DNA from: Candidatus Zixiibacteriota bacterium | Lineage (GTDB): Bacteria; Zixibacteria; MSB-5A5; GN15; FEB-12 | Reading direction: 5' to 3' | NCBI GenBank assembly: GCA_020351995.1 | Contig: CP070674.1 | Location: 1,413,307-1,477,306, forward strand | DNA: 64,000 nt | In this document: one piece after another, positions 20,463-63,917 of the stretch | Numbering within the stretch: position 1 is the first letter of the stretch | How the letters are laid out: every line of letters starts with the position of its first letter | Notes under the pieces: model-generated | Seen by the model: the letters and a program-made list of their open reading frames with translations, nothing else | Told to the model about the DNA's origin: nothing | Database searches by the model: none | Program-made: the position numbers and the translations under genes

Positions 20463-21467
20463 GTGCCACTCCAGATAAAAGTCGCGGGCAAAACTGATGT
20501 CGGCCTGGTCCGTACGGCTAACGAGGATTGCCTGCACCTGGATGAAAAAAACAGAATCTTCGCCGTCTGTGACGGCATGGGCGGGCATCAGGCCGGTGAG
20601 GTTGCCTCGATGATGTCGGCGGATATCATTGACATTATCTTCAATCATTTTCAGGATGAGATTCAGCGTGACGAACGACTTTCGTTTGGGCACGCATTGC
20701 CTCAGAGCGGCGAAATCCTGATCAAGGCCATACGAATCGCAAATCGGGCCATCTTCAATACCGCCGTGGAAAAACCCACCCTCCTGGGTATGGGCACCAC
20801 CGTTGTGGCGCTGGCCCTCGAGGGAGATGTGCTGTCGGTCGCCCACGTCGGGGACAGCCGCGCCTATAGGCTCAAGGAGCGGTCACTCGAGCCACTCACT
20901 GTAGATCACTCCTGGGTAGCCGAAATACAGCAGAATCAGAACCTGTCACATCAGGAGGCGGCCTCGGTGGTGGGAAAGAACGTCATAACCAGGGCCCTGG
21001 GCGTTCGCGAGAATGTCGAGGTCGATTACCGCCTGGTTAAAGTCGGGCCGGGCGACAAATTCATGATCTGCTCCGATGGCCTGTGCGGATTCGCTGATGA
21101 CGATGAGATATTCCATACCATGAACCGGGTTCGCGACGACAATGAGCATATCGTCACCGAACTGGTGCAGTTGGCCAATGATCGAGGTGGTGCCGATAAC
21201 GTCACGGTCGCTGTTCTGGAGGTGATCGACGTTGAGGCTTCCGACGCCCCGGAGATCGAGAGATTGACGATTCCGGCTGAGACAAACGAGATTCTCAGTG
21301 TCGAAGACGGGTGGCTGGAGAAATTGAACGCGTTTATCGCCCGCAGAAACGAAACACCTGAGATTGTGCCGCCCGAGAAACCGGTAAATAAGGCCACGGT
21401 AATCGTTATTTTCGTAATCTTCATTATCATCGCCGCTGTAATCATCTACTTCTCCGCCGTTCGTTGA
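20463..21467 (+). CDS. PP2C-family Ser/Thr protein phosphatase with extreme C-terminal TM anchor
   Basis: 334 aa. Motifs: TDVGLVRTANEDC, VCDGMGGHQAGEVAS, VGDSRAY, ICSDGL and GGADNVTV. The last about 25 aa are hydrophobic (ATVIVIFVIFIIIAAVIIYFSAV). GTG start. Confidence 0.9.
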   Translation: MPLQIKVAGKTDVGLVRTANEDCLHLDEKNRIFAVCDGMGGHQAGEVASMMSADIIDIIFNHFQDEIQRDERLSFGHALPQSGEILIKAIRIANRAIFNTAVEKPTLLGMGTTVVALALEGDVLSVAHVGDSRAYRLKERSLEPLTVDHSWVAEIQQNQNLSHQEAASVVGKNVITRALGVRENVEVDYRLVKVGPGDKFMICSDGLCGFADDDEIFHTMNRVRDDNEHIVTELVQLANDRGGADNVTVAVLEVIDVEASDAPEIERLTIPAETNEILSVEDGWLEKLNAFIARRNETPEIVPPEKPVNKATVIVIFVIFIIIAAVIIYFSAVR

Positions 21468-21674: not shown

Positions 21675-22397
21675 TCAGTGGAGAAAAGCGGCGACACGCC
21701 GGGCGATTTCGAAATTCTTGAAGGGCTTGGTTATATAACCGTCAGCGCCCGCCTCCAGAACATCGTGCTTATCGTAACCGTAAGTCTTGCCGGTGACTAT
21801 AAGCACCGGGATTTTGCGGGATTTCTCTTTTATGGCTTTGAGCAATTCCAGGCCGTTCATGCCAGGCATCTCGAGGTCCGAAATAACCAGCCCGATCTTC
21901 TTTGAATCAAACAGTTCCAGGGCCTGTTCGCCGCTCTCGGCTTCTTTCGTCTTATATCCCTCACGCTCGACGATCTTCTTAAGCAGGCCTCGCATGAGCG
22001 GATCGTCATCGACAATCAGAATCGTCTTCGTACTGTTTTCAATCAGGTGCTGAATTTTGGTGATAAGGATTCTGGCGTCGACCGGTTTGACAATAAAATC
22101 CTTGGCCCCCAACTCAATGCTTTTCATGACTGACTCGCGGTCGTGCTGAGCCGAAACCACCAGTACCGGGATCTTGTTGTACCGCTGGTTGGTCTGCAGG
22201 TACTCCAGAAACTGAAAGCCGTCCATACCGGGCATGTAGATGGTGCAGATTATGGCATCAAAAAAACGGTGCCCATTGAGCTCATTAATAGCCATTCGTC
22301 TGGAGTTGGCGATGACTACCTCGTATTCGGCCGCATCCAGGGTGGTTTTGATGGTTTTCAGCGTGACCGGATCTTCTTCGACCAGTAAGATTCTCAT
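21675..22397 (-). CDS. Stand-alone tandem receiver protein (REC-REC); first receiver lacks the phospho-acceptor Asp
   Basis: 240 aa. REC1 reads MRILLVEEDP...FFDAIICTIYMPGMDG, with Thr52 at the acceptor position. REC2 is canonical: ILIVDDDP...IGLVISDLEMPGMNG...ITKPF. No output domain. Confidence 0.85.
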   Translation of the reverse strand: MRILLVEEDPVTLKTIKTTLDAAEYEVVIANSRRMAINELNGHRFFDAIICTIYMPGMDGFQFLEYLQTNQRYNKIPVLVVSAQHDRESVMKSIELGAKDFIVKPVDARILITKIQHLIENSTKTILIVDDDPLMRGLLKKIVEREGYKTKEAESGEQALELFDSKKIGLVISDLEMPGMNGLELLKAIKEKSRKIPVLIVTGKTYGYDKHDVLEAGADGYITKPFKNFEIARRVAAFLH

Positions 22398-48981: not shown

Positions 48982-49449
48982 GTGGGCATGATCAAAGAAT
49001 TCAAAGAGTTTGCCGTCAAAGGCAATGTAGTTGACATGGCCGTGGGAATCATCATTGGCGCCGCGTTCGGCACCATTGTTAAATCCCTCGTAGCGGATGT
49101 AATTATGCCACCCATAGGCCTGCTTCTGGGCAACGTCGACTTTTCCAATCTGTTTATCGTTTTGAAACAGGGTGCCGAAGTGGCCGGGCCGTACGCAACT
49201 ATGGCCGACGCGCAGACGGCGGGCGCGGTGACCCTGAACTACGGTATGTTCATCAACACCGTTATCAGCTTCCTGATCGTAGCATACGCCGTCTTCCTCG
49301 TCGTTCGCAGTATGAATAAGCTTAAACGAAAAGAAGAGGCACCGGCACCGGCCGAACCAACTATGAAGGACTGTCCTTATTGTGCTTCCGAGATCTCAAT
49401 CAAGGCCAGGAAGTGCCCGAATTGCACATCGGAACTCGCCACATCTTAG
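48982..49449 (+). CDS. mscL: Large-conductance mechanosensitive channel MscL with C-terminal zinc-ribbon extension
   Basis: [46 protein letters not shown] is near-identical in pattern to E. coli MscL. The C-terminus reads [18 protein letters not shown] (49372..49425). Start is GTG 48982 or ATG 48988. Confidence 0.9.
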
Positions 49450-49474: not shown

Positions 49475-50389
49475 ATGACCAGCACTCTCAGAGCGTCCTT
49501 TGTCCTCACTCTGCTGCTTTTGGTCGCTTCCGGGGCATCGGCCGCCGAAGAAGACAGCACCTTTGTCGGCTGGAGAAAATCACTCACAGCCGACATTACC
49601 GTCACCCAGACTGGCTACTCCGACTCATGGACCGGTGACGAAGTCAGTTCGTTCAACTGGGTAAGCAATCTCAACGGCACCGCCGAGAAACAACTCGCCC
49701 CATGGTTCGACTTTAAGTCTACCCTGAAAATCTCCTTCGGGCAGACCATAACACAAGACACGACCTCCGACGGTGGCCGCGAGTGGGGCGACTGGAGAAA
49801 ATCCACCGACCTTATCGACTGGGAAAATGTCGGACTGTTTACACTGCACCAATTTGTTGATCCTTATGTCGCTTTCAGACTGGAGACAAGGTTCTACGAC
49901 GGTAGTAACGCCGATAAGAAGCTCTGGTTCTCGCCACTCCGCCTGACAGAATCGGCCGGTATCGCCCGCAAGTTCTATACGAAGGAAGATGATTTCGTCC
50001 TGAGCCGCCTGGGCCTGGCCGTAAGAGAAACATTCATATCATCGATCGCCGACCCGGTAACCCTCAAAACCACCGACACAACCCTTACTGACGGCGGGCT
50101 TGAAAGCGTTACCGATGTCAGTCTTACACTTCACCAGAATATTCTCTACACCGCGAAATTGACGCTTTACAGGGCCTTCTTTTTCTCCAGGAGCGACGAG
50201 GTGAAAGGAACTGAGTACGAGGATTTTTGGAAGGCGGTCGATGTCGCGTGGGAAAATATACTGGCCGCCCAGGTTACCAAGTTCGTCACCGTTAATCTTT
50301 ACACCCAGATCCTTTACGACAAAGAAATATCCAGGAAAGGCCGTTTTAAAGAAACCGTCGCGATCGGTCTGGCCTTCAAGCTGATCTAG
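49475..50389 (+). CDS. Probable outer-membrane beta-barrel protein (DUF3078-like by recollection)
   Basis: 304 aa with a signal peptide (LLLLVASGASAA). Alternating amphipathic beta-strand pattern and an aromatic C-terminal strand (IGLAFKLI). Lies 25 nt after mscL. Confidence 0.5.
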   Translation: MTSTLRASFVLTLLLLVASGASAAEEDSTFVGWRKSLTADITVTQTGYSDSWTGDEVSSFNWVSNLNGTAEKQLAPWFDFKSTLKISFGQTITQDTTSDGGREWGDWRKSTDLIDWENVGLFTLHQFVDPYVAFRLETRFYDGSNADKKLWFSPLRLTESAGIARKFYTKEDDFVLSRLGLAVRETFISSIADPVTLKTTDTTLTDGGLESVTDVSLTLHQNILYTAKLTLYRAFFFSRSDEVKGTEYEDFWKAVDVAWENILAAQVTKFVTVNLYTQILYDKEISRKGRFKETVAIGLAFKLI

Positions 50390-50422
50390 AATTCCCTTGG
50401 GACCCGTATCGGGTAGACAGGC

Positions 50423-50449
50423 AAGGGTGAGTCGGCATGGCTCACCCTT
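50423..50449. terminator. Hairpin between convergent genes (49475..50389 and 50465..51364)
   Basis: 9-bp stem AAGGGTGAG / CTCACCCTT with a 9-nt loop. There is no clear T-run on either strand. Confidence 0.4.
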
Positions 50450-50464
50450 CTGTAATATCACCGG

Positions 50465-51364
50465 TTATTGATCATCCTCGGTGCTCCAGAAGGGAGCATG
50501 GTAGCTGCCGTCAAAATCCGATTCATAAAAACGTCCGTCCGGACCCTGGTAGATTAGCTGGTTGAAATCCAGCAGGTAGGGTTTCACGTGACCGGTCTGG
50601 GCGATAAAGTTCTTTGTTTGCGTTCCGACCTGCCCGGTGAAAACCAGGTTCGCGTCATCCCGTTGCTCCACGTAAACGTAGCGATTCAGGGTCGGCTCCA
50701 TACTCAGCCACCGAACCTTACCCTCGGAGGTAATGGTTACAAGCGTATCAACCGTAATCTCAGGACCTTCTTCGATGTCAAAATATCTTAATCGGCACAC
50801 ATCCCAGACACCGTTGTCGCGCTCCGACAGGGTAATAACCCGATCGGCCGAGTAATAGGTGGGGTCGGACCCGTTAACATCAAGCTGGGAAACACCGGGA
50901 TTCTCAATATTGATCAGGTAGAGAAGCTTTCCCACACAACCTATCAAAAGGCTATCATCGAGGAACGCGATTGCATGATAATTTCCGGTTACACCCGCTG
51001 TTGACACCGAGCCACTGGCAAAGTCGAGAACGTTGAGGGTCCCTCCGGTCAGAAATGCTACACCCGATCCGTCAGGAAATTGCACCGGCGAATGAAAACC
51101 GAATCCATAGAGAATCTCTTCTCTGGCAGGGCTCGTCACGCGCGCACGATATATACCGTTCTTATCCGCCAGGAGAGTATCACTGGTTATGTAATAGATA
51201 TACTCGCGATCCGTCGAAAGAGACGGTTCAAGCTCCGTTGAGTAGTACGAAGGCTCGTTTGGGAGATTGGGCGCGTTGGTCCCCGAATTATTATTGTTGC
51301 ACCCTGACGCGAAAACGAGTGCCAGACCGACCAGAAGACCTCCATACGCGAATACTTTGAACAT
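50465..51364 (-). CDS. Lipoprotein, beta-propeller-like, unknown function
   Basis: I chose ATG 51364 (MFKVFAYGGLLVGLALVFASGC, lipobox FASGC) instead of the ORF-track start at 51529, whose first 55 aa look non-coding. Confidence 0.65.
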   Translation of the reverse strand: MFKVFAYGGLLVGLALVFASGCNNNNSGTNAPNLPNEPSYYSTELEPSLSTDREYIYYITSDTLLADKNGIYRARVTSPAREEILYGFGFHSPVQFPDGSGVAFLTGGTLNVLDFASGSVSTAGVTGNYHAIAFLDDSLLIGCVGKLLYLINIENPGVSQLDVNGSDPTYYSADRVITLSERDNGVWDVCRLRYFDIEEGPEITVDTLVTITSEGKVRWLSMEPTLNRYVYVEQRDDANLVFTGQVGTQTKNFIAQTGHVKPYLLDFNQLIYQGPDGRFYESDFDGSYHAPFWSTEDDQ

Positions 51365-51470
51365 AACAAATCCTGAAAACCGCTCTTTGTATCTAATATA
51401 ACACCGAACAGATAGAATCCATTCCGAAAAAATGCCGGTAAAACCGAGAGTTTTGTGGGATAACGGGAAG

Positions 51471-53180
51471 TTAAGGGATGATATTGGCGACGTAGAGCAC
51501 TGCCAGGATACCGGCCAACAAGCCGGCACCGATGGTCACGTACATCCAGAGACGACCGTTCTTGCCGGTTGGCGCGTCCGGTTCTTCTTTGACAACCGGT
51601 GCCTGCTTGCGAGCCTCCCGCTGATGCTCATACTCCTCGAAATCCAGCAGGAACTCGTCGCAGGATTTGTAGCGACGCGTCACTCTGATCGCCAGAAGCT
51701 TGGCCAGCATCCTCTGAACGTCTTCAGGTAACTGCATCTTAACGTCGTGGAGAAGCAGGTTGCTGGCTGTGTCATAACTGGGATTTCGACCGGTTATCAT
51801 CTGATGAGCGATAACGCCCAGACTGTAAATGTCTCCCTGGCGTGTCTTCTTACGTTCAGGGGGCATATACCAGTTCTTCTTGCGGGGATTTTCATAGTGA
51901 GCCGGCAGGCCAAAATCCGTGATCTTCACAACGTCATCGGCATCAAACAGAATATTCGATGGCCTCAGGTTACCGTGAATTATGTTGTTCTTGTGGGCAT
52001 GGTGAAGTCCTGAGGCAACCGCCGTGATAATTCCAAAGGCCTTGTCCCACCGATACTTACGCACCATCCGATCTGCCAGAGACCCCCCCTGGGCGTAATC
52101 AATAATTATGACCGTGGACTTAGTGTCACCACCGGAACCGTAGATATCAATAATGTTCGGGTGCTTGAGCGTGCCGAGTACTTTCGCCTCCTTGCGTCCG
52201 GCTTCGCCCTTGCCGTGTTTCTTGATTACGTAGAGTTTCTTGTTTACCCGGTTCTCCACCAGAATGGTGGAACCAAACCTCGTTTCTTTTATCGTATCCA
52301 GATATCGGCATTTGCCCAAGAATGAATCCGTTCCCTCAAGAGAAAGGCTATCGGTCTTGGCGCCGGATTCATCGCGAATGATCACATTGAGTACGGCATC
52401 TTTCAATTCCACTGCTCTCTGGTAACGATCCTTGGCCTCCTGGGCCAGGCACTTCAGGATGATTTCATCAAACTCTTTGGGCAGCTTGCCATTTATCTCG
52501 GACGGAAGTTTGAAATGCCCCTGCGGCTTGTTACCGACGAGGATCTCATACAGCATCACACCTACAGCATAGATGTCGGTCGTCTGGTCCACCCGGGCAG
52601 AACTGATTTTTTGCTCCGGTGACATGTAGGCCAGGGTCCCCATGATGATATCCGATGACGTCATCTCGCTGTCGGGCGCGCACACCATCTGAGCTATCCC
52701 GAAATCACTCACCATGGCATTGCCCTGACGATCCACCAGAACATTGGTAGGCTTTATGTCCCGATGGATAACACCGTTCTTATGGGCATAGTCGAGCGCC
52801 TTGCACACCTGTACAATCATCTCGAGCTTCGTCCTCAGCAGTATCTTGGGACTATCGATTACTTCGCGCAGCGAGGTACCGTTGATGTACTCCATGACGA
52901 AGTAGTAACGACCACTGGCCTTGCCCCGATCGATGATGTGGACAATATTGGGATGATTGAGCCGCGCGATTACCAGCGACTCCCTTTCAAATCGGCGCAC
53001 GATATCCTGGTCCTCGGTCATCTTGGAGGACAGGATCTTTATGGCCACGTCACGATCCAGCGATTCCTGCCTGGCCTTATAGATCTCAGCCACACCCCCC
53101 CGGCCGATCTTGCCGGTTATGACGTAATCGCCAATCTTTACCGCTTTCTTGGGCTGCGCTACCTGTGCTGTTTCAACCAT
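51471..53180 (-). CDS. Tail-anchored Ser/Thr protein kinase with tandem kinase + pseudokinase domains
   Basis: 569 aa. Domain 1 has GKIGRGGVAEIYKA, VAIKIL, HRDIKPTNVLV, DFGIA and YMSPEQ. Domain 2 (51636..52310) has a degenerate G-loop, YVIKK, IIHGNLRPSNILF (HGN at 51969..51977), DFGLP and YMPPER. A single TM sits at aa 545-566, with only about 3 aa beyond it. Confidence 0.9.
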   Translation of the reverse strand: MVETAQVAQPKKAVKIGDYVITGKIGRGGVAEIYKARQESLDRDVAIKILSSKMTEDQDIVRRFERESLVIARLNHPNIVHIIDRGKASGRYYFVMEYINGTSLREVIDSPKILLRTKLEMIVQVCKALDYAHKNGVIHRDIKPTNVLVDRQGNAMVSDFGIAQMVCAPDSEMTSSDIIMGTLAYMSPEQKISSARVDQTTDIYAVGVMLYEILVGNKPQGHFKLPSEINGKLPKEFDEIILKCLAQEAKDRYQRAVELKDAVLNVIIRDESGAKTDSLSLEGTDSFLGKCRYLDTIKETRFGSTILVENRVNKKLYVIKKHGKGEAGRKEAKVLGTLKHPNIIDIYGSGGDTKSTVIIIDYAQGGSLADRMVRKYRWDKAFGIITAVASGLHHAHKNNIIHGNLRPSNILFDADDVVKITDFGLPAHYENPRKKNWYMPPERKKTRQGDIYSLGVIAHQMITGRNPSYDTASNLLLHDVKMQLPEDVQRMLAKLLAIRVTRRYKSCDEFLLDFEEYEHQREARKQAPVVKEEPDAPTGKNGRLWMYVTIGAGLLAGILAVLYVANIIP

Positions 53181-53364
53181 ACTAAGTGCAATTTGTCGCA
53201 GACAGCCGATAATCCGGCTATCCCTATTATAGTCGGCACAATCAAAGGGATGGTTTATTGGGCTGAGGCTATTTTTTGGGGATGGGGGCAGGACCCGTGC
53301 ACACGGATTCTATGCCCCGTGCCGGGACCAGTGTGGGCCCGTATGGAGCTGCTATCGCGGCAAT

Positions 53365-54822
53365 TTAGTTCCAGTGAGTCTTAACGTTTACGAAAAGAGT
53401 CTTGTTGTTTCGCCAGACAAAGAAAATGACTTCGGCCGGTTTCGTCTCCTGGACCTCATCCATAATAGGTTTTATATCGTCTATCGTCTCAACCGCCACA
53501 TCTCCCACCTTCTGGATAACATCACCAATAGCCAGACCTTCAAGCGCGGCCAGCCCGCCCTGTTTGAGTTCTGAAACGACGACCCCGTGAAAGGTCTCGG
53601 GATCCTGATTATAGAACAGGTAGTCCGCGAAAACCAGGTCGCGCACCTTGAATTCCAGGGCTTCACTTTCGTACTCGGGAGCGTCAGCGGCAGCCAGCGG
53701 GGCCGCCTCCAGGGTCGCGAGCACCCGAAGCGTGTCTACCCGATCATCACTAACCCGAAGAATCGAAAATTCGACCGCTGTCCCGGGTCCCAGGTCGGCT
53801 ATGAATCGCTGGAAAACAGGTATCTTCTCATCCTTGTCGACCTCAACCGGTTGACCGTTGACTTCGTAGACAATATCCCCAATCTCCAAACCGGCCTGTT
53901 CGGCGGGGGAACCCTTTACGACATCATTGACGATTATCCCGCTGGAAGTCTCCAGCCCCCAGAAGTCGGCAATGTCTTCCGTTAACGCCTGAAGCGTAAT
54001 GCCCAGCCAGCCCCGGTCGATCTTTCCCTTTTCAGGGGGGTCAGCAATTAGTTCGGAAAGTCGATCCCCGGTCACGACTCCCAGTAAAGGCATGCCGAAT
54101 CTTTCAAAAGAGTTCATCATACCACCGGGATCAATGCCGGATACGGCCGGGTCTTCGAGTTGGCCAAGAACGCCGACTGGCTGTAAGGCCTCGTTGAATA
54201 GAACCGAGGCTATCTGAAGAGAGCTGAAGCCAACGGTCAGGGGGAAATACTCCGGTGACTCCACGATGGTCGATATCATACCGACATCAACTGCCAGCGG
54301 CGGACTCACAAACTCCGGCAAAAGCATAAAGAGCGCCAGCCACCGGCCGGTATTGAATTTCTGAGTGGTCGTGAAAGTTATCGGTACAAATTCGTCCGGT
54401 CCGACACCCTCAATCCGCAGGAAGCCGATTTTGGTGTACCGGTCGACGCCCACGTACTCGCCCGTGAAACTCCGGCCGTCAAGGGTTGTAACCTCTATAT
54501 TCGTTGGTTTCGTCCTTATCGAGAAACCGGCAAACGACGACGAGGAGTTATCGGTCGCCAGAGAAGCACCATCGAAAAGAACCAGCCCGTCACTCGATAC
54601 GATCGTGCCGAGCAGACGGTCCTCCTGTTCATTCACATGAACGCCGAACGAGATCTCTAACTTCATGTCGATTACGACCGTGTATCCCTTTATGGCCTGC
54701 CCGAGCTTCTCAAAATCAAAATTCTGCGAATAACTGGACTGCCATAGTGCCGCCGACACCAGACCGAGGGCAAGGATTGTTGCTCGGAGAAGAACCTGCA
54801 CGCCAGATTTACTGCTCATCAA
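53365..54822 (-). CDS. HtrA-like protein lacking the catalytic triad (pseudoprotease) with two PDZ domains
   Basis: 485 aa with a signal peptide. The HtrA-like N-half carries FDGAS in place of TN.HV, YTKIGFLRI in place of TDIAVIKL, and no GNSGG. The PDZ blocks are retained (RGWLGITLQ...GSPAEQAGLEIGDIVYEVNG; LAALEGLAIGDVIQKVG). It overlaps the upstream active HtrA by 14 nt. Confidence 0.8.
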   Translation of the reverse strand: MMSSKSGVQVLLRATILALGLVSAALWQSSYSQNFDFEKLGQAIKGYTVVIDMKLEISFGVHVNEQEDRLLGTIVSSDGLVLFDGASLATDNSSSSFAGFSIRTKPTNIEVTTLDGRSFTGEYVGVDRYTKIGFLRIEGVGPDEFVPITFTTTQKFNTGRWLALFMLLPEFVSPPLAVDVGMISTIVESPEYFPLTVGFSSLQIASVLFNEALQPVGVLGQLEDPAVSGIDPGGMMNSFERFGMPLLGVVTGDRLSELIADPPEKGKIDRGWLGITLQALTEDIADFWGLETSSGIIVNDVVKGSPAEQAGLEIGDIVYEVNGQPVEVDKDEKIPVFQRFIADLGPGTAVEFSILRVSDDRVDTLRVLATLEAAPLAAADAPEYESEALEFKVRDLVFADYLFYNQDPETFHGVVVSELKQGGLAALEGLAIGDVIQKVGDVAVETIDDIKPIMDEVQETKPAEVIFFVWRNNKTLFVNVKTHWN

Positions 54823-56182
54823 CTATTTCTCCCGTTTTTTCTTCAATCTTAATCGGCACAAAGCGCGTGGCGCCACCCCTCCTTATGGTCAGAAGAGCTT
54901 TTTCGGCTTCCTGCCTCGTCAGATTATTGTATGCTTCCACAAAGTCGGCCAGGGAATTGATCGTACTCTTATCAACCTTTTTCACCACGTCGCTGCGGCG
55001 CAGGCCTCCTTCATCAGCTGTGCTGACCGCTTTTACACCAATCACCATCACACCGAGAGTGTCCTCAAGTTGATTATCAATTTGCATCTGCTTGGTGATT
55101 GCCTTAACCGTAAATCCCCACCCTTTGCATTCGAAATCTTCACCCTGGAGATCCCCAAGTTCTTTCGTAACTACCTTGAACTTGTGATGCTGGTCGCCCC
55201 GCAGGACTTTCAGCGTTATCTCGGAACCGGGTTCTCGATGCGCGATCAGGCTGTAGAAGGCCGGAAGTTCCTCGACAAATCGCCCCGCCACCGGCTGATC
55301 GTCAACTTCGAGTATAACGTCACCGGCTTTCAAAAAACTCTTCTCCGCGGGCGAACCGGGATCAATGGATGAGACCAGCACGCCCACATCCCGATCGGTA
55401 CCGAAGTAATCCTCCAGCTCCTGAAGGGCCTGACAGTGAACACCTATCCAGCTACGTATCACTTTGCCCTGAGATAGAATCGAGGCGGTGGCTTCTTTAA
55501 CAATGTTTATCGGTATCGCGAAGCCGATATTATTGGCGAACCAGGTTCCTCGCGAGTTTATGCCAATTACGCGACCGGACAGGTCAACCAGCGGGCCACC
55601 CGAATTGCCCGGGTTAATGGCCGCGTCGGTCTGAATCCAGAGGTTGTATTGACCCGTGCGTTCACCCGTGGGAAGGCGAACATCTCCACTGAAATAGCGG
55701 TCCTTGGTGGAGATGACACCCGCCGAAACCGACCTGGAGAGGGCCAATGGTGAACCCATCGCAATCACATACTGACCCACTGCGATCGAATCGGAATCGC
55801 CAAATTCCGCCACCATCACCTCTCCCGTGTATTCAGACAAATCCAGTTTGATTACAGCGATATCGGTCAGCGGGTCGCCGCCCACAAATTCAGCCGGGAC
55901 AATCTCGCGGTCGGCAAGAGTGCACAAAATCCGCTCGGCTTTCGCGGTCACATGATAGTTGGTTACGACATACCCGTCGGCATGGAAAATTACGCCGGAT
56001 CCGACCACTTGCTGCTTTTCCAGTTCACCGGTATTGTAATTCTTCACCACCGGTTGAATATGAACGAGTGCTGGCATCACCCTGTCCCTGGCAAAATATA
56101 TCTCATTCTGAACCGTTCCGGCACGCGCGACGGCCGTTACCATTATCGGGACCAAAAGAATGATAAGTGTAATTCTAGACAT
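54809..56182 (-). CDS. HtrA/DegQ-family serine protease with two PDZ domains (catalytically intact)
   Basis: 457 aa with TNYHVTA, LTDIAVIKLD and GNSGGPLVDLSGRVIGINS. Confidence 0.9.
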   Translation of the reverse strand: MSRITLIILLVPIMVTAVARAGTVQNEIYFARDRVMPALVHIQPVVKNYNTGELEKQQVVGSGVIFHADGYVVTNYHVTAKAERILCTLADREIVPAEFVGGDPLTDIAVIKLDLSEYTGEVMVAEFGDSDSIAVGQYVIAMGSPLALSRSVSAGVISTKDRYFSGDVRLPTGERTGQYNLWIQTDAAINPGNSGGPLVDLSGRVIGINSRGTWFANNIGFAIPINIVKEATASILSQGKVIRSWIGVHCQALQELEDYFGTDRDVGVLVSSIDPGSPAEKSFLKAGDVILEVDDQPVAGRFVEELPAFYSLIAHREPGSEITLKVLRGDQHHKFKVVTKELGDLQGEDFECKGWGFTVKAITKQMQIDNQLEDTLGVMVIGVKAVSTADEGGLRRSDVVKKVDKSTINSLADFVEAYNNLTRQEAEKALLTIRRGGATRFVPIKIEEKTGEIVDEQ

Positions 56183-56382
56183 TGACTTTCCTGGATATGT
56201 TGGTTCTTCGCATCTCTTAAACAGAATTTAGCTGTGCTGGTTCAAAAGTAAACTAAAAAACCGCCTGCTGCCGGCTACAGGAGCGTCTTATAACCGTCAA
56301 CAGGCGATGATTTCAGCGTCGGGAATACCGGCGCCGGTCTGCTGCCTCTCTACCTATGTCAGCCGGCGGTCAGGGCACCGCT

Positions 56383-57231
56383 TCATTTCCAGTAAACATC
56401 CACTGAACCCAGACCGACCGAGATTTCGAGAGTTATTCGCGTATTAGCTCCATCGAAATCGTCGGACTCGTAAACGTCATCGTCCACTTCATCCATGTCA
56501 CGGTTGTGGAGATCGACCGAGGATAACCAGTTGTCGCCCTCGGTTTCGATACGGAAAGGAACACCATCGGGCAGAGTAATATCCGCCGAGCCAAGGCCTA
56601 TGTCGACACTTATCACCGATTCGCCGGAATACTCGCCCCGGAGATCAAGTTCAAAGGAACCTGCCCCACCGTCGAAATCAAAATACTCGAAATTGGCGTT
56701 GCCCACGCTGTGAATCTCAACGGAGGACGCCCCGGCATCAATATCGATTTCTTCCAGCCGGATAGGGTTGGGCTCGGAGAACTCCAGCACAGCCGAGGCC
56801 GCGCCAACGTCAAGCGAAAATTCCTGAAGAGGTATTCCTCCCAGGTCAATGTCGGCGTCACAGGCCCCAATATCCATCTCGATAGATGTCGGATACTTCT
56901 TGGATAACACAATGTCCCAGCGATTATCGTCCGTGTCGATGTTGGTCGATGAACGATGTTCACTTTCCAGGTCTATAAAGCAGGTACCTCGTTTCTCCGC
57001 GTAATCAACCAAATATTCGACCCGGCGCGGATCATAGGTGATATCAATTACGGCTGCCTCGGCCATGTCCTTCGACCGAACCGTAAACTCTCCTGCCCCC
57101 AGATCGCATCGAACGAATACTTCATCAGCATTCTTTAATTCTACTGTATCGCTGACGTGCTCTTTTCTGTCAGCCACGACCGAACCGGAAAGAAGCATAA
57201 TCGCCGCAAGAACAACAATCCATCTATTCAT
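56383..57231 (-). CDS. Exported Toastrack-type (DUF2154/DUF4097-like) beta-rich protein
   Basis: 282 aa with a signal peptide. Repetitive D/G-rich short strands are typical of the LiaF/PspC-associated Toastrack fold: DIGACDADIDLGG, DVGAASAVLEF, IDAGASSVEIH, FDGGAGSFELDL and DIGLGSADITL. Confidence 0.55.
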   Translation of the reverse strand: MNRWIVVLAAIMLLSGSVVADRKEHVSDTVELKNADEVFVRCDLGAGEFTVRSKDMAEAAVIDITYDPRRVEYLVDYAEKRGTCFIDLESEHRSSTNIDTDDNRWDIVLSKKYPTSIEMDIGACDADIDLGGIPLQEFSLDVGAASAVLEFSEPNPIRLEEIDIDAGASSVEIHSVGNANFEYFDFDGGAGSFELDLRGEYSGESVISVDIGLGSADITLPDGVPFRIETEGDNWLSSVDLHNRDMDEVDDDVYESDDFDGANTRITLEISVGLGSVDVYWK

Positions 57232-57276
57232 AGCCTAATCTCCCAAAATTGATATTCTACTTGCCTTTATATAAGA

Positions 57277-58521
57277 TTACGAGCCGGCAGGACCGGAGGT
57301 TTCATCCTCATTCTCCCCGTCGAAAACCCCGGGCGTAGGTTCCGGGGGCGTCTTGGGAATAGGTGGCGGAGCCGGGGTTACGGTTGCTCCGGCTCGCCGC
57401 TGACGCTCTTTCCAGGGAATGTACACTTTGAAGCCGAACCGCGTCATTACTGCTCCCCCAACACCAGTCAAAATAGGGTAAGTACTCAGAACTATTGAAA
57501 CCACCAGGAAGAAAACCCCAAAACCGCGAGCTACGTCGGCGCTTGCCCTCAGCAGGGCCGCCGTTAAGAACCACAGCGCCATGAACGCCAGTATCCCCAC
57601 CATTGACCGTAGTAACACGTTAGATCCGGGGCCCTCAAACCTCGCCAGAACCACCCGGCCAACATCTTCACCAAATGCGACTACTCCGAGTAAGATCGCA
57701 AACAGGTAGACAAAAGGTACAAACGGTAAGAGTACTACACCGACGATGGTAATTGCCACCAACACCAATATGAATGGCATCAGCAACATGAAGAAAAGCC
57801 CGATAAGATAAGCCTTGAGCCTGTTCTCAGAGAGACAGGTCTTGAAATTTGCGGTCTGACGGGGCAAAAGCGTCACAATCAAAAAACCGAAGAATAAGAA
57901 GACACTGGTGAATATCACGATCAGAATCATCCCGACATCGGAGCCGGGCGGCGGTATGTAATCTCCCGGATCGATGTCAACGATCACCCGCTCACCCAGA
58001 ATTTGCCCCCCCGGTTTGACCACGATTTCCGAGGCAGTAACGTCCCCATCGACCCTCCCGCCTCCCGCAATCAGTACCCGGTTATTTATGGATGTTACAT
58101 CGCCTTTGACCCACCCCCGAATCGTTACCCGACCCAGCGCGATGATATTCCCATCGACATACTCGTCATAGTCAATCACAATCCGTTGGACGACCGGCTT
58201 TACTTTCACCTCCCGCGAGTCACGTTCCTCGACCGGAGCATATACATCACCCAGCTCGTCGGGGGCCTCGGGCGCCTCGACATCCTCACCATCGCCCGGA
58301 ATTCCGACTACAAAGACGCCCCTGTCAAAGTCGTAGTACCAGTCATAGCCGGCCGTGTCAACGGCCGCGACGCCGTCTGCAGTCAGTGTTATTTCATTGA
58401 AAACGGTGTCGGAAGGCGCGTATTCGCCGGCCTCGTCCTGCGCCCGCGATACGGCCACGCTTGCCGAAAGCAAAAGGACGGAGGCAAATAGCACCTGTGT
58501 GCCCACCGGGGGGATTCTCAT
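57277..58521 (-). CDS. Membrane protein with exported bactofilin-like (DUF583) beta-helix segment, about 5 TM segments and a Pro-rich tail
   Basis: 414 aa with signal-like MRIPPVGTQVLFASVLLLSASVAVSRA. The block GNIIALGRVTIRGWVKGDVTSINNRVLIAGGGRVDGDVTASEIVVKPGGQILGERV follows the bactofilin repeat pattern. The C-terminus reads TPAPPPIPKTPPEPTPG. Confidence 0.6.
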   Translation of the reverse strand: MRIPPVGTQVLFASVLLLSASVAVSRAQDEAGEYAPSDTVFNEITLTADGVAAVDTAGYDWYYDFDRGVFVVGIPGDGEDVEAPEAPDELGDVYAPVEERDSREVKVKPVVQRIVIDYDEYVDGNIIALGRVTIRGWVKGDVTSINNRVLIAGGGRVDGDVTASEIVVKPGGQILGERVIVDIDPGDYIPPPGSDVGMILIVIFTSVFLFFGFLIVTLLPRQTANFKTCLSENRLKAYLIGLFFMLLMPFILVLVAITIVGVVLLPFVPFVYLFAILLGVVAFGEDVGRVVLARFEGPGSNVLLRSMVGILAFMALWFLTAALLRASADVARGFGVFFLVVSIVLSTYPILTGVGGAVMTRFGFKVYIPWKERQRRAGATVTPAPPPIPKTPPEPTPGVFDGENEDETSGPAGS

Positions 58522-58549
58522 CGTTACATCCTATGTATTCTGCCGATGC

Positions 58550-59464
58550 CTAGTAAAGCACAACATCGACATCACCAGTGCCCGAGGAAAGCGATATGGT
58601 CGGCCCGCCGTTTCCAAACTGACCCACCAATCGCTTGCCCGATACAGATTTTATCGTCACTGGTATTTGCGTACGTATTTCTCCGGCTTCGGTTTCGATA
58701 TCCAGCAAACCTGATGATGATACCGGCACCGAGAAAGTAATAGAACCGCTCGCTGTCTCAACAAAATAGTCTTTGGGGCTGTCCAGTTCCGTCTGGACTT
58801 TTACCTCGCCCGCCGACGTGGAAAGGTCAATAGCCCCCCGAACCTGTATGATGGAGATCGCGCTGGACGTCGACTTGACTCTGATATCCCCTTCAATCCA
58901 GTGCAGGTCAATTTGCCCCGTCGGCTGTACCAAGGCCACTGATCCAAATATGTACTCGCCGGTAGTCGTACCACCCGAATTCTCCACAACCACGTCTCCC
59001 TCGACGGAGGAAATACTAACATCACCGTTCATGCTCACAATCGATACCGACGAGTTAATCGGCACGGTAATCTGAAAATCAACAGCCCCGTACGAGTCTT
59101 TGCCGGCTGTGCCAAGCAGACGGCTCCAGAATGAGCGACCGCGGTTAAGCATTTTCAGATAATGCGTTTCGATTTCTACGTGTCGGTCGTCCGATTTCAC
59201 TTTGATCTCAACGTGATCAGCAACTTCTTCGGCCTCATCCCGGTTTGAACCTCGTACTTTCTTAATAGCCTCGATAATGACACGACCATCGCTGCCACCG
59301 GTGACAGTCACATCACCCTTGACGGAATACAGGTCCAGCTCCACGGGTTCATCGATTTCAAGAATCTTCTGATATTCAAACGAGAATTCCTCACCGCTGA
59401 CCGGCAGACCCAGACCAAAGACAATTACCGCTGCGGGGAGCAGCCTGATAAGCAACCAACGCAT
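58550..59464 (-). CDS. DUF4097/Toastrack-domain protein with N-terminal signal anchor
   Basis: 304 aa. It starts directly with a hydrophobic segment (MRWLLIRLLPAAVIVFGLGLPVSG). Repeated G(D/S)V.V strands follow: KGDVTVTGGSDGRVIIEA, NGDVSISSVEGDVVVEN and GTGDVDVVLY. Confidence 0.65.
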   Translation of the reverse strand: MRWLLIRLLPAAVIVFGLGLPVSGEEFSFEYQKILEIDEPVELDLYSVKGDVTVTGGSDGRVIIEAIKKVRGSNRDEAEEVADHVEIKVKSDDRHVEIETHYLKMLNRGRSFWSRLLGTAGKDSYGAVDFQITVPINSSVSIVSMNGDVSISSVEGDVVVENSGGTTTGEYIFGSVALVQPTGQIDLHWIEGDIRVKSTSSAISIIQVRGAIDLSTSAGEVKVQTELDSPKDYFVETASGSITFSVPVSSSGLLDIETEAGEIRTQIPVTIKSVSGKRLVGQFGNGGPTISLSSGTGDVDVVLY

Positions 59465-59490
59465 AATCTTTGCCGTCCTGTTTTCACCGG

Positions 59491-60057
59491 CTATACCACC
59501 GATTTCAACCTTTTCTTTAGCAGCTCCCGGGCTCTGAAAATCCGGGCTTTGACGGTACCAACCGGTATACTCAGTAAATCGGCTATTTCCTCGTATGATT
59601 TATCGTCTTTGTGACGGTAAATTATTACCTCACGGTACTTATCCGGCAGAGAGGCAATGGCTTCTTCGATATTATAGCGCTGCTCCTTTCGCTCCAGTTG
59701 CTTTTCGGGGTTGAACGAATGGTCGGCTACCTCAATCCCCACCGCTCCGTCCTTAGTCTGAACTTCCTGATCCAGTGACAGGGCGCTGATGCGCTTCTTC
59801 CGGAGATAATCGATAGAGCAGTTGGCCGCGATTTTGTAAAGCCAGGTCGAGAATCTGTACTCGGAACGGTAGCTGCCGAGCGAAGAAAAGGCCTTCATAA
59901 AGGTCTCTTGTACCAGGTCATGGGCAGTCTCGCTGTTGCGCACTATCTTGAAGATAATGTGATAGATGGCCAGGCGATGCCTTTCGGTCAGGTTTTCATA
60001 GGCCTTTTGGTTGCCTTTCAAAGCCTCGGATATAACTTGTGTCTCGTCGTCGTACAA
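59491..60057 (-). CDS. ECF-type RNA polymerase sigma factor
   Basis: 188 aa. Region 2 reads AHDLVQETFMKAF...FSTWLYKIAANCSIDYLR. Region 4 reads EIADLLSIPVGTVKARIFRARELLKK. TTG start in the ORF track with an AAGGA upstream. Confidence 0.9.
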   Translation of the reverse strand: MYDDETQVISEALKGNQKAYENLTERHRLAIYHIIFKIVRNSETAHDLVQETFMKAFSSLGSYRSEYRFSTWLYKIAANCSIDYLRKKRISALSLDQEVQTKDGAVGIEVADHSFNPEKQLERKEQRYNIEEAIASLPDKYREVIIYRHKDDKSYEEIADLLSIPVGTVKARIFRARELLKKRLKSVV

Positions 60058-60249
60058 CCGAATCCTTCTGCCCGTTTTGTTAATCCACTTCCCTGGCTCG
60101 ATTTAGCCGGTATATAATAAGCAACCTGAAATCTACTCACAAGGGAAAAGTCTGAACGCAGTCGGAACACGCAAGCGCTTGAGGGAAACTAAAGAATGGT
60201 TCAGAATGAAACACTCGCCTCAACATCGGTTTAACCGATTAGCATCGAG

Positions 60250-61440
60250 TCAATCCGTCGCTCCAGTAACTTCTCTAAAGTGCTCAGGGTCGGTATCACC
60301 CTCGGTATTGAAGACCAGGATTGTTGAATCGGATCCGATTTCCAATCGCTCTTTGGCTTCCGCCAGCTTCTCCGCCGTCGCAAGAGCAATCAGGGCCGCC
60401 AGGCCGGCGGCTCCGGATTCTCCGGATATAACCCGAGGATCATCACCGACAGGGTGGTAGAATTGCCGCATGGCCTTGCGGCATGACTCGTCTGATATCG
60501 CCACAGCCAAGCGAAAGCCGTCCCGAATGAGCGGCCATGCGTTCAGTGATGGTGTGCCGCAATTTAGCCCGGCCATAATGGTCCTGAGACTCCCCCGGCT
60601 CGATCTGAGCTCGCCGTCGCCATGGCGAATCGATTCCAGAATGCAGTCAGCCTCGGTCGGCTCAACCCCGATCAGAAGCGGTGGGTTTCTCTTCTGCAGG
60701 TAATACCAGGCGGCCGCCCCGGCAAAACTACCCACGCCCACCTGGAATATGGCATGACTCGGCGGTGTTTCGGCACTGTCATCTAACGCCCGGTCAATTT
60801 CTCTAAACATGGTTGTATAAGCAGCCATAATCCAGGCCGACACCTCCGTGTATCCCGGGTACGAAGTATCCGATATGACGTGCCAGCCCTGTTCCTCGGC
60901 ATCCTGAGCCATCCGCTTGAGCGTCTGGTCATAGCTGCCATCCACCACGACTACCTCCGCACCTTCCTTCCGGATATTGTCAATCCGGGCTTTCACGGCA
61001 CACGAGGGAATGTAGATAACGGCCCGCTGGCCGATCTTGTTGGCGAACCAGGCTACCGCTCGGCCATGATTACCATCCGTCGCGGTGCAAAACGGACGCA
61101 GATCAATCTGAGCCAGCAGGGCAGGATCATAAAGATTCGCTATCTCGAATTTGACGCCAAAACGATTTTCCCACACTCTCTTGATGAACCTGTAAATGGC
61201 ATAAGACGCTCCCATCGACTTGAATGCCTTGAGGCCGAACCGATGAGATTCGTCTTTCACCAGAATCTCCCGGACCCCGATTTTACGGGCTAAACAGGAA
61301 AGGCGCACCAGTGGGGTAAAACTGTACCCCGGCACGGAACGATGGAACTCTTCAATGTCTTCGCTCAGAAACGCGGTGTATTCCGGGTCGCTCCAGACAG
61401 GGTTGTCGGTCACATGCCGGTTGAGGCTGTAATCGCACAT
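60250..61440 (-). CDS. dpaL: Diaminopropionate ammonia-lyase (PLP-dependent)
   Basis: 396 aa, collinear with E. coli YgeX as I recall it: ILVKDESHRFGLKAFKSMGASYAI, TATDGNHGRAVAW, RVISGESGAAGL and NTEGDTDPEHFREV. Confidence 0.85.
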   Translation of the reverse strand: MCDYSLNRHVTDNPVWSDPEYTAFLSEDIEEFHRSVPGYSFTPLVRLSCLARKIGVREILVKDESHRFGLKAFKSMGASYAIYRFIKRVWENRFGVKFEIANLYDPALLAQIDLRPFCTATDGNHGRAVAWFANKIGQRAVIYIPSCAVKARIDNIRKEGAEVVVVDGSYDQTLKRMAQDAEEQGWHVISDTSYPGYTEVSAWIMAAYTTMFREIDRALDDSAETPPSHAIFQVGVGSFAGAAAWYYLQKRNPPLLIGVEPTEADCILESIRHGDGELRSSRGSLRTIMAGLNCGTPSLNAWPLIRDGFRLAVAISDESCRKAMRQFYHPVGDDPRVISGESGAAGLAALIALATAEKLAEAKERLEIGSDSTILVFNTEGDTDPEHFREVTGATD

Positions 61441-62337: not shown

Positions 62338-63780
62338 TTACTTGATTAACAACATCTTACGGTTTTCGACGTATTGTCCGGCAACCAGCCGGTAGAGATA
62401 CAACCCACCTGCTACCACGTCACCCACGTCATTGCGCCCGTCCCAGGATAGGGCGTGGTCTCCCGCCGAAAACGACCTGTCGGCCAGCACACGGACCTTC
62501 TGCCCCAGTGCATTATATATCACCACCGATACACTCGACCGGTTGGGCAAAGAGAACGCAATAATAGTGTTAAGGTTAAACGGATTCGGGTAATTCTGCC
62601 CGAGGGCGACCGAGGCCGGCAATGCATCGTAGCCTATACCATCATCTATGCCCACCAGAATATCGGTTCCATTTAAAAGGATTGTTACGGTGTTGTCATC
62701 AAAGTTCGTAATTGCCAGATCATTATCCATGTCGCCGTCAAAGTCGGCGCCACAAACCGCAGTGGGGCCAAGACCGACGGGATAGTCCAACGCCGGCTGG
62801 TCAAAATTTCCGCTGCCCAAATTCATCAGAAGCGCGACCTCATCCGAGGTATTTGTAACGGCCGCCAGATCAAGATCGGTGTCGCCGTTGAGCTCAACCG
62901 CACAAATCCCCCGCGTCGCCGCTCCCGCTACCAGGTAGTTGCTGGCGGTGCCGAAAGTGCCATCACCATTATTCTTCAGTACCGAAACGTCGTGGGTGGC
63001 AGAATTCGCCGTCGCGATATCATAGCTCCCATTCCCATCAACATCGGCTGTCGTTATGGCTCGCGGAGTACCATTAACAGCGTAGTCAACCGGGCCGGTA
63101 AAGGTGCCGCCACCGGCATTAGTGAAAATCGAAACACTATTGAAACCCGAGTTCGCCACGGCTAAGTCGACTGAACCGCTCCCGTCAAAGTTGGCGGCAC
63201 AAATCGCAAACGGGGTTGAACCCAGACCGGTACTATAGGTGACATATGATGGAAAGGTCCCATCGTCATTGTTAATCAGAACCGTAATGCTGTCGCCCCA
63301 CTCATCAGCCACCGCCAGGTCAATCAATCCGCTGCCGTTGAGCTCAGCCGCACATATTGCCCGCGGGCCAATCCCGTCCACGCCGACCGCGTAACTAACC
63401 GGTGCCGCAAAAACCCCTAAGCCGTCGTTTTTTAAAATCGTTACATCATCGGACATAAAATTCGTGACTGCCAGGTCAATATCGCCGTCGCCATCAACGT
63501 TGGCGGCACAAATTCCGGAAGGCTCCGTACCGGCATCGTAACTCACAGCTGCCAGAAATGTGCCGTCACCCACCCCCAGTAGCACCGACACATTGTTCGA
63601 ATTTGTGTTCGCCACGGCCAGATCAAATTCGCTGTCGCCGTTAAAGTCAGCAACGCAAATAGCGCGTGGACCCTGGCCTACCGGATAATCCACCCGAGAA
63701 GCGGAAAACGGGGTATCAGCCAATACCGAAACCGAGACAACGCCAATCGTCATCACAATAGTGATTAACAGTAAACGCAT
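62338..63780 (-). CDS. FG-GAP/VCBS-repeat beta-propeller protein with T9SS-type (Por/FlgD-Ig-like) C-terminal sorting domain
   Basis: Seven repeats of the pattern (F/V)DGDG..D(L/I)AV.N...(N/D).V(S/T)(V/I)(L/F).N.G.GTF. The C-terminus QNYPNPFNLNTIIAFSLP...VVIYNALGQKV...SWDGRNDVGDVVAGGLYLYRL...KMLLIK is the classical T9SS CTD. I chose ATG 63780 (MRLLLITIVMTIGVVSVSVLA). Confidence 0.85.
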   Translation of the reverse strand: MRLLLITIVMTIGVVSVSVLADTPFSASRVDYPVGQGPRAICVADFNGDSEFDLAVANTNSNNVSVLLGVGDGTFLAAVSYDAGTEPSGICAANVDGDGDIDLAVTNFMSDDVTILKNDGLGVFAAPVSYAVGVDGIGPRAICAAELNGSGLIDLAVADEWGDSITVLINNDDGTFPSYVTYSTGLGSTPFAICAANFDGSGSVDLAVANSGFNSVSIFTNAGGGTFTGPVDYAVNGTPRAITTADVDGNGSYDIATANSATHDVSVLKNNGDGTFGTASNYLVAGAATRGICAVELNGDTDLDLAAVTNTSDEVALLMNLGSGNFDQPALDYPVGLGPTAVCGADFDGDMDNDLAITNFDDNTVTILLNGTDILVGIDDGIGYDALPASVALGQNYPNPFNLNTIIAFSLPNRSSVSVVIYNALGQKVRVLADRSFSAGDHALSWDGRNDVGDVVAGGLYLYRLVAGQYVENRKMLLIK

Positions 63781-63917
63781 ACAAACCTCCTCGCGGAGAA
63801 AAAGGTTCAGCACAAGTACGACCCTTCCAGTCGCAACGCCTGGCTTTACTTTGAGATAACCGCATACACCGGGAAACTCCGGTGACCAGATCGCTGGCTC
63901 GCCCGATCTTCTGCCTG

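Follow-up and report, generated by a model that had tools for sequence, protein, structure and literature searches.

Sigma factors of the extracytoplasmic function (ECF) class form one of the major signalling systems of bacteria, and the logic of such a system is usually read from the anti-sigma gene adjacent to the sigma gene. The locus described here, located in a 64-kb stretch of contig CP070674.1 of a Candidatus Zixiibacteriota bacterium (the window), encodes a SigW/RpoE-like ECF sigma factor which, with a textbook promoter, is kept across a whole uncultivated phylum without an adjacent anti-sigma gene, and a bactofilin-DUF8173 membrane protein (g3) that is a candidate for its regulator. 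The characterised sigma factor closest to it by sequence is SigW of Bacillus subtilis, which is paired with the single-pass zf-HC2 anti-sigma factor RsiW (ECF30) and subject to regulated proteolysis by PrsW/RasP. The consensus of B. subtilis sigmaW promoters is TGAAAC-N16-CGTA. In Caulobacter, an ECF sigma factor is controlled by NrsF, a polytopic membrane anti-sigma factor without a class I domain. Operons combining an ECF sigma gene with a membrane regulator and periplasmic partner(s), with HtrA-family proteases associated, are represented by rpoE-rseABC with DegS/DegP in Escherichia coli and sigE-rseA-htrA in Mycobacterium tuberculosis. The core sigmaW regulon includes yvlABCD (PMC3498285), of which yvlB is assigned as a Toastrack gene (PMC11237479), and it has been mentioned in general terms that Toastrack proteins can share an operon with a sigma factor (PMC11237479). 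Vibrio EcfP/PknT and Xanthomonas EcfK/PknS (ECF43) have a Ser/Thr kinase but no anti-sigma domain partner, and in EcfP the acidic DAED motif of region 2.2 is replaced by Ser/Thr residues, one of which is phosphorylated (PMC8999054).

All genes of the cluster lie on the minus strand and are referred to, in order, as sigma and g2 to g8. The eight genes and their domains, as given by an initial annotation of the window, were recovered as open reading frames with Pfam and NCBIfam matches, and the measured spacing from sigma to g7 (26, 28, 45, 200, -14 and 184 nt) agrees with the earlier figures wherever these were given. The eight proteins were mapped onto 62 related loci obtained by scanning a genome collection with a g3 alignment; these are species representatives, essentially all Zixibacteria, and about 60 of them were used for counts, with the loci having enough sequence as denominators. 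Signal peptides and topology were called by sequence rules. The literature search found no paper describing the module and none linking bactofilin or DUF8173 proteins to ECF sigma factors, in line with the earlier supposition that it is undescribed. We class the locus among the ECF modules for envelope stress, as one whose partner protein is non-canonical.

Transcription divides the region into three neighbouring units, which Zixibacteria keep side by side, and the functional core of the region is a four-gene sigma operon. This first unit has genes encoding the sigma factor (59491..60057), an exported DUF4097 Toastrack protein (g2, 58550..59464), the bactofilin-DUF8173 protein (g3, 57277..58521) and an exported LiaF-like Toastrack protein (g4, 56383..57231), and is closed by a terminator (56252..56317, minus strand), a long GC-rich hairpin followed by a T-run; GGTTTTTT-type k-mers are frequent at the same position in relatives. 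The second unit comprises the genes for an HtrA protease and an HtrA pseudoprotease, together with a type IX secretion system (T9SS) substrate gene in relatives, and the third those for a kinase-pseudokinase and a lipoprotein. Since the 200-nt gap 3' of g4 holds this strong terminator hairpin, the same-strand cluster is not one operon. In 60 species representatives of Zixibacteria, the order sigma-g2-g3-g4 on a single strand was found wherever the sequence reached far enough; the HtrA/pseudo-HtrA pair follows in 38/44 Zixibacteria loci, and the kinase in 25/31, about six of the 31 being without a nearby kinase. The gene-order comparison called for by the initial annotation therefore bore out a conserved order, and because the genes 5' of sigma vary among loci, the downstream order is specifically maintained. 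By identity across Zixibacteria, g3 (34-57%) is a fast-evolving protein, whereas sigma factor (68-89%) and kinase (59-81%) change slowly.

Regarding transcription of the core operon, a promoter scan detected a sigma70-type promoter in the window (TTGTGA-17-TATTAT, 60114..60142, minus strand), and sigma70-like CTTGTAA...TATTATA k-mers recur 5' of sigma in most relatives. An ECF-type motif, TGAAAC with up to one mismatch followed by N15-18 and CGT(A/C/T), is located 43-54 nt before the sigma start in 38/60 relatives. This autoregulatory promoter, TGAAAC-N16-CGTA in relatives, is lost in one related locus (L011) and in the window, where a degenerate form remains (TCGAGC-N16-CAAA, 60076..60101, minus strand) with both the -35 and the -10 element mutated. 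An internal ECF-type promoter for g4 stays intact in the window as an exact match (TGAAAC-N17-CGTA, 57278..57304, minus strand) inside the 3' end of g3. Of the relatives, 46/60 have a comparable site at a distance of 57-86 nt from the g4 start, and near-variants of it are present in most of the remaining ones. As a background, the motif precedes g2 in 2/61 loci, HtrA in 1/46 and the kinase in 1/32. The consensus TGAAAC-N16/17-CGTA was deduced from 83 sites that are conserved 5' of sigma and g4 in relatives. A relaxed scan of the window returned four matches with 4.1 expected by chance, so that only conserved, positionally fixed sites count and no regulon can be derived from the window alone. 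These sites indicate, at the level of sequence, that the sigma factor drives its own operon in most relatives and, separately, g4, in agreement with the earlier proposal that it drives the Toastrack and bactofilin genes. As the window keeps the sigma70-type but not the autoregulatory promoter, sigma activity should be controlled post-translationally. The -35 element of the g4 promoter, TGAAAC, is dual coding and reads Asp-Glu-Thr in the g3 tail (g3 residues about 406-414); 'DET(S)' is kept in the otherwise variable g3 C-terminus of close relatives because its codons double as this -35 element.

The sigma factor has 188 aa with Pfam Sigma70_r2 and Sigma70_r4_2 domains and belongs to the ECF class (sigma-70 group 4), scoring 126 bits with the TIGR02937 sigma70-ECF model at a cutoff of 42.9. 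The top curated model is SigW PRK09641 with 176 bits, under its equivalog cutoff of 209, followed by two models for 'RNA polymerase sigma factor' (148 and 141 bits) and RpoE (127 bits); TIGR02948 gave 152 bits at a cutoff of 243. By these scores SigW is the nearest family, and the sigma factor is not a member of it by the curated threshold. The best PDB matches are SigW (5wuq, 2.8e-34), then AlgU and RpoE (E about 1e-28), and almost every homologue with 70-89% identity belongs to Zixibacteria. No anti-sigma domain was detected in the operon proteins with Pfam or NCBIfam, no zf-HC2-like open reading frame was detected within the 64-kb window, and extending the open reading frames of the operon adds an N-terminal cytoplasmic anti-sigma domain to none of them, nor does any open reading frame near sigma encode such a domain. 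Neither the operon nor the window open reading frames thus include an RsiW-type single-pass zf-HC2 protein, and the earlier description of a sigma factor without a recognisable anti-sigma partner holds. The linker between sigma-2 and sigma-4 (residues 90-125, window 59683-59790) is unusually conserved in Zixibacteria, with A92-L-S-L-D96, T101 and D112-x-S-Y-x-P117. Such linkers are normally variable in ECF sigma factors. The conserved linker could be a regulator-contact surface.

In the SigW-aligned region 2.2, the DAED position of the window sigma factor reads T44-A45-H46-D47. The orthologues show no variation at D47, Q50 and E51; at position 44, 37/61 have Thr and 20/61 Ala, Val or Ile, with Glu in close relatives, and sister sigma factors (63-69% identical) read E-T-E-D, E-T-R-D or E-A-A-D. 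T44 was considered as a phospho-acceptor and ruled out by its poor conservation. As judged from this alignment, no conserved phospho-acceptor replaces the acidic contact.

The g3 protein has a signal peptide, a small beta domain, a bactofilin beta-helix (Pfam Bactofilin, residues 112-177, 32 bits), a DUF8173 domain with five transmembrane segments and a cytoplasmic tail with the motifs TRFGF and PAPPPI, in which T360, R361, G363 and P383-A-P-P-P387 are invariant in the alignment. DUF8173 (PF26514) is recorded on several members of the g3 family and covers the transmembrane domain. The AlphaFold2 model of g3 has a mean pLDDT (predicted local distance difference test) of 77, exceeding 90 in the transmembrane region, and contains five long helices and a short helix in the first cytoplasmic loop; a Foldseek search of the PDB matched only the bactofilin part and gave no fold match for the DUF8173 transmembrane domain. 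Mean numbers of Lys plus Arg in the successive extramembrane segments of 37 family members were 0.9, 2.9, 0, 2.9, 0.2 and 4.1, and this alternation strongly supports an N-out/C-in topology with five transmembrane segments, by which two basic loops of g3, and its tail, face the cytoplasm. It is the sole operon protein with cytoplasmic surfaces, its bactofilin-type beta-helix being predicted to be periplasmic. Regarding class I and class II anti-sigma domains, g3 has no Pfam or NCBIfam match; on the cytoplasmic side it offers two loops, each of about 17 aa, and a tail with one short helix.

A profile search with the g3 family gave 8079 matches at E<=1e-3. Distant members share the bactofilin domain and the ITIIGIPVA and LTRFGxR motifs, after which a Pro-rich tail usually comes, and the contexts of such members were inspected at eight loci (L068-L075). 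Three of these (L072, L073 and L074) have bare sigma-g3 pairs with gaps of 18-65 nt and sigma factors 63-69% identical to that of the window. The order in L071 is sigma, DUF4097, g3 with a C-terminal Toastrack and then a Toastrack; in the Gemmatimonadota (L068-L070) it is sigma, a small protein with several transmembrane segments and an anti-sigma-like AGFAxRVM motif and then g3, with an ECF-type motif just 3' of sigma; and in L075 it is sigma, a zf-HC2 anti-sigma and then g3. No kinase was detected within 5-7 kb of any of these eight modules. Since g3 alone recurs across all contexts, it is g3 that constantly accompanies this kind of sigma factor; neither the kinase nor the HtrA pair nor the Toastracks do so. 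Two distant members have additional domains after the last transmembrane segment, on the predicted cytoplasmic side: P0341 (L071:4717-6630) an extra LiaF-like Toastrack, and P0340 (L075:4208-6268) a second bactofilin block near-identical to the exported one. These domains hint that proteins dock on the cytoplasmic tail, or that members differ in their topology. A C-out topology of g3, raised by these C-terminal beta-solenoids, is contradicted by the Lys and Arg pattern of the 37 sequences.

Compared with the described systems, the module resembles SigW-RsiW in its sigma factor, in its TGAAAC-N16-CGTA type of promoter, present in the window as the exact site at 57278-57304, and in a Toastrack gene within the regulon (yvlB in B. 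subtilis, g4 here). It differs from SigW-RsiW in having no zf-HC2 anti-sigma in the cluster, in a partner that spans the membrane five times and has an inverted layout (sensor N-terminal, cytoplasmic part C-terminal), in two additional exported Toastracks, and in a sigma factor that falls under the SigW equivalog cutoff. A sequence taken for RsiW gave zf-HC2, a sub-threshold Bactofilin match in its extracytoplasmic part and an hhalign probability of 89% against the beta-helix of the g3 family, so that both partners may expose a bactofilin-like beta-helix outside the cell. This is an unverified lead only; it suggests that SigW-type modules may have had a bactofilin-like sensor on the outside from early on. 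Similarly, the sigma factor is clearly related to RpoE and AlgU and its operon shares the architecture of rpoE-rseABC and sigE-rseA-htrA, including the association with HtrA-family proteases. However, RseA, RseB and RseC are not homologous to g2, g3 and g4; the HtrA protein here is of the DegP/Q type with two PDZ domains and is paired with a pseudoprotease; and it has no sigma-type promoter before it. With LiaFSR and Psp the cluster shares DUF4097, Toast_rack_N and LiaF-like_C domains in g2 and g4, but no LiaRS, PspA/LiaH or PspC was found among the eight cluster proteins, and the Toastracks here are predicted to be periplasmic, in contrast to the intracellular location put forward for these domains (PMC11237479). 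NrsF is a precedent for a polytopic membrane protein controlling an ECF sigma factor, although it has no sequence or fold relationship to g3, which has a large exported beta-helix and DUF8173. The ECF43 systems are similar in that no anti-sigma domain partner is present and a Ser/Thr kinase is found in the vicinity, whereas the sigma factor here lies outside that group: its acidic motif in region 2.2 is altered only partly and with no conserved phospho-acceptor, it is far closer to SigW/RpoE than to any kinase-linked group tested, and its kinase is not adjacent to it and is transcriptionally separate.

The preferred reading, to which we give about an even chance, is that g3 is the membrane regulator of the sigma factor, as a non-canonical anti-sigma or a signal transducer, with the Toastracks as periplasmic partners and the HtrA pair as candidate proteases; what we infer in it is that g3 binds the sigma factor, what the Toastracks do and that release is proteolytic. 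In this scheme, g3 would hold the sigma factor inactive at the membrane via its cytoplasmic face, formed by the two basic loops and the TRFGF/PAPPPI tail, and sensing would be the task of the exported g3 beta-helix together with the exported g2 and g4, which may bind or shield it. The sigma-induced g4 would provide feedback, as RseB does on RseA, and envelope damage would release the sigma factor, plausibly by proteolysis, for which the HtrA/pseudo-HtrA pair is a candidate. In favour of g3 as regulator are the strict sigma-g3 adjacency across lineages, including the bare two-gene modules, the sigmaW-type promoters before sigma (38/60) and g4 (46/60), the topology and invariant cytoplasmic motifs of g3, and the lack of another candidate in the operon, as g2 and g4 are exported. 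It would be a bolder and only tentative step, with distinctly less than an even chance, to regard bactofilin-DUF8173 proteins of Zixibacteria, Gemmatimonadota and other lineages as a new, widespread class of polytopic anti-sigma factors or transducers for SigW-like ECF sigma factors that sense via an exported beta-helix. If the g3 family is the regulator, a new anti-sigma class would be defined, a domain of unknown function would gain a function, and Toastrack domains would be shown to act in the periplasm.

Several points weigh against g3 as the regulator. The protein has no recognisable anti-sigma domain, its cytoplasmic parts being short loops and a partly disordered Pro-rich tail. A canonical zf-HC2 anti-sigma stands between sigma and the g3-like gene in L075, and Gemmatimonadota place the small AGFAxRVM membrane protein there; as another protein occupies the anti-sigma slot in these loci, the part of g3 in them may be that of an accessory factor or of a target. 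Furthermore, the main output of the regulon would equally be expected to be co-transcribed with sigma. In another reading there is no anti-sigma factor at all, the sigma factor being set by its own transcription from the sigma70-type promoter and by autoregulation, with g2 to g4 as envelope-stabilising beta-solenoid effectors. This agrees with the absence of any anti-sigma domain from the operon, with the existence of ECF groups without anti-sigma factors (PMC7826278; PMC8999054), with the target-like sigma-type promoter of g4 and with the L075 and Gemmatimonadota loci, where g3 follows another protein in the anti-sigma slot. We nevertheless consider it rather unlikely: the window and L011 keep only the housekeeping-type promoter, so that the sigma factor would be permanently on, the strict sigma-g3 adjacency down to bare pairs is the classic arrangement of a sigma factor and its regulator, and the invariant cytoplasmic motifs of g3 have no obvious effector role. 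A conventional anti-sigma encoded elsewhere in the genome, with the operon proteins as unrelated cargo, would be in keeping with SigW, AlgU and RpoE, the closest characterised sigma factors, which all use class I anti-sigma factors, and the inspected part is 64 kb of a genome of roughly 3.6 Mb. However, anti-sigma genes almost always adjoin their sigma gene (PMC7826278), none was found next to sigma in 60 Zixibacteria genomes, and no zf-HC2-like open reading frame is present in the window, which leaves this explanation a very small probability.

Regarding the kinase, its synteny in 25/31 Zixibacteria loci also weighs against a mechanism confined to g3 and its partners, as some functional tie of the kinase to the cluster is possible. 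The initial annotation had made the kinase the switch of the sigma factor, phosphorylating it in the manner of EcfP/PknT, with a distant PP2C phosphatase reversing the modification. The same-strand kinase, the lack of an anti-sigma domain, which is typical of kinase-associated ECF groups (PMC7826278), and the T-A-H-D at the DAED position, with two of three acidic residues gone, would fit such a switch. Yet position 44 varies and D47 and E51 do not, the sister sigma factors retain acidic residues there, the kinase stands six to seven genes off, in most relatives behind a T9SS gene and a conserved terminator, the same sigma family occurs with g3 but no nearby kinase (L072-L074), the kinase has no extracytoplasmic sensor domain, and the link to the PP2C rests on a shared 64 kb. 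Direct phosphorylation is therefore regarded as highly improbable, and the proximity of a kinase alone does not make an EcfP-type phospho-switch. An indirect action of the kinase, on the g3 tail (e.g. T360) or another component, is somewhat easier to accommodate but still improbable. The sigma operon, HtrA pair and kinase are kept in synteny while upstream genes vary, g3 has an invariant juxtamembrane Thr, the kinase is tethered at the cytoplasmic side of the membrane, and PknB phosphorylation of anti-sigma factors, as with RseA of M. tuberculosis, is a precedent for the release of ECF sigma factors (PMC8999054). On the other side, the TRFG(T/F)R motif of g3 is kept in lineages without an adjacent kinase, and about six of the 31 Zixibacteria loci have no nearby kinase. 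We read the kinase-pseudokinase as a conserved neighbour that has transcription signals of its own, and not as the direct switch of the sigma factor.

The two Toastrack proteins of the operon both appear to be exported. The g2 protein matches Pfam DUF4097 over its full length (E 3.4e-9; 36.9 bits, cutoff 22.9), and in its orthologues a classical signal peptide precedes a mature N-terminus that is acidic, E-Y-T-F-D-Y-Q-K. The g4 protein has a Toast_rack_N domain (30 bits, cutoff 22) and a LiaF-like_C match of 28.7 bits, marginally under the cutoff of 29, and its orthologues have signal-peptide-like N-termini with AxA sites. One N-terminal hydrophobic segment each was found in g2, g4, g5 and g6. 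The Toastrack domains of the initial annotation are thus present in g2 and g4, but the proteins look cleaved, with AxA-type sites, and not signal-anchored as it had stated. With these signal peptides the Toastrack domains are predicted to be periplasmic, and as exported proteins g2 and g4 are unable to contact the sigma factor. Toastrack domains have been argued to be intracellular in general (PMC11237479), and the predicted location of g2, g4 and their orthologues is at odds with this generalisation. A role of g4 as a cytoplasmic LiaF-like anti-sigma, suggested by the P0341 fusion, was rejected on the signal-peptide architecture and AxA sites of its orthologues, and also since L071 has a separate g4 beside the g3-Toastrack fusion.

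The second unit starts with g5 (54809..56182, minus strand), encoding an active periplasmic protease of the HtrA/DegP family with Trypsin_2 and two PDZ domains (TIGR02037, 330 bits), the triad H77/D107/S194 of which is present in 46/46 orthologues. The following gene, g6 (53365..54822, minus strand), overlaps g5 by 14 nt and encodes a paralogue with PDZ domains only, 26% identical to g5 over 394 aa, in which VGVLG replaces GNSGG; the triad columns are never H/D/S among 42 orthologues, which places it outside the active HtrA/DegP proteases as a pseudoprotease. The pair of an active HtrA and a dead paralogue was thus recognised correctly at the outset, while its assignment as a direct target of the sigma factor is not supported: a sigma-type promoter precedes HtrA in only one of 46 loci, and a sigma70-type promoter, TTGCCGAT-N17-TATACT, in about 20.

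The third unit contains g7 (51471..53180, minus strand), with two Pkinase matches. The first domain keeps K48/D141/D159, the second has HGN in place of HRD in 25/26 orthologues, and a conserved single C-terminal transmembrane anchor spans residues 550-568, all of which agrees with its earlier description as a tail-anchored kinase-pseudokinase; a place for it in the sigma operon is not supported, given the T9SS gene and the conserved terminator found before the kinase in most relatives. In 25 relatives a T9SS-substrate gene (Por_Secre_tail) of about 1.2-2.8 kb lies between pseudo-HtrA and the kinase, and three elements before the kinase are conserved, with some compensatory changes: the end of that gene's coding sequence (KKMVLVK*), a TGCCGAT box, and a hairpin of 11 bp with a T-run. 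The window retains a relic of the deleted T9SS-substrate gene (53200..53281, minus strand), recognised by comparison with relatives and consisting of its 3' end, the TGCCGA box and a decayed hairpin without a T-run; the relic of its last codons reads CCCCAAAAAATAGCCTCAGCCCAATAA, with ACCAAGAAAATGGTCCTGGTCAAATAA in relatives.

The TGCCGA(T) box, followed by TATAA-like bases (window 53227-53238) and just 5' of the hairpin, is present in 32/32 kinase upstream regions and lies 50-100 nt before the kinase start in L001-L065. A similar cTTGCCGAt forms the -35 element of the HtrA promoter in about 20 loci. Sequence conservation of the box and hairpin stem is unusually high for a terminator. An Rfam scan of positions 50000-61000 at E<=1 gave no match, so that the hairpin before the kinase belongs to no known RNA family.

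The last gene, g8 (50465..51364, minus strand), encodes a putative lipoprotein (MFKVF...) with the lipobox LVFASGC and no family match, its start most likely being at 51364 and not at 51529. Orthologues are present 3' of the kinase in about nine loci, one of them with a faint PD40 match.

Regarding other genes of the window, the PP2C at 20463-21467 is a real phosphatase gene, but its assignment as eraser for the kinase is not supported: it stands at a distance of 30 kb, on the opposite (plus) strand, and no link between it and the cluster was found. It adjoins genes encoding a double-receiver response regulator and a TrkA-type channel, with 21675-22397 (minus strand) listed alongside. By eye, the open reading frame at 48982-49449 (plus strand) has an MscL-like N-terminus and an unusual zinc-ribbon-like end (CPYC...CPNC). 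The gene at 62338-63813 (minus strand) appears, likewise by eye, to encode a large secreted protein with repeated FG-GAP-like 'VCAADFDGDGxxDLAV' units and a C-terminal T9SS-type sorting tail, and T9SS substrates are frequent around the cluster in relatives.

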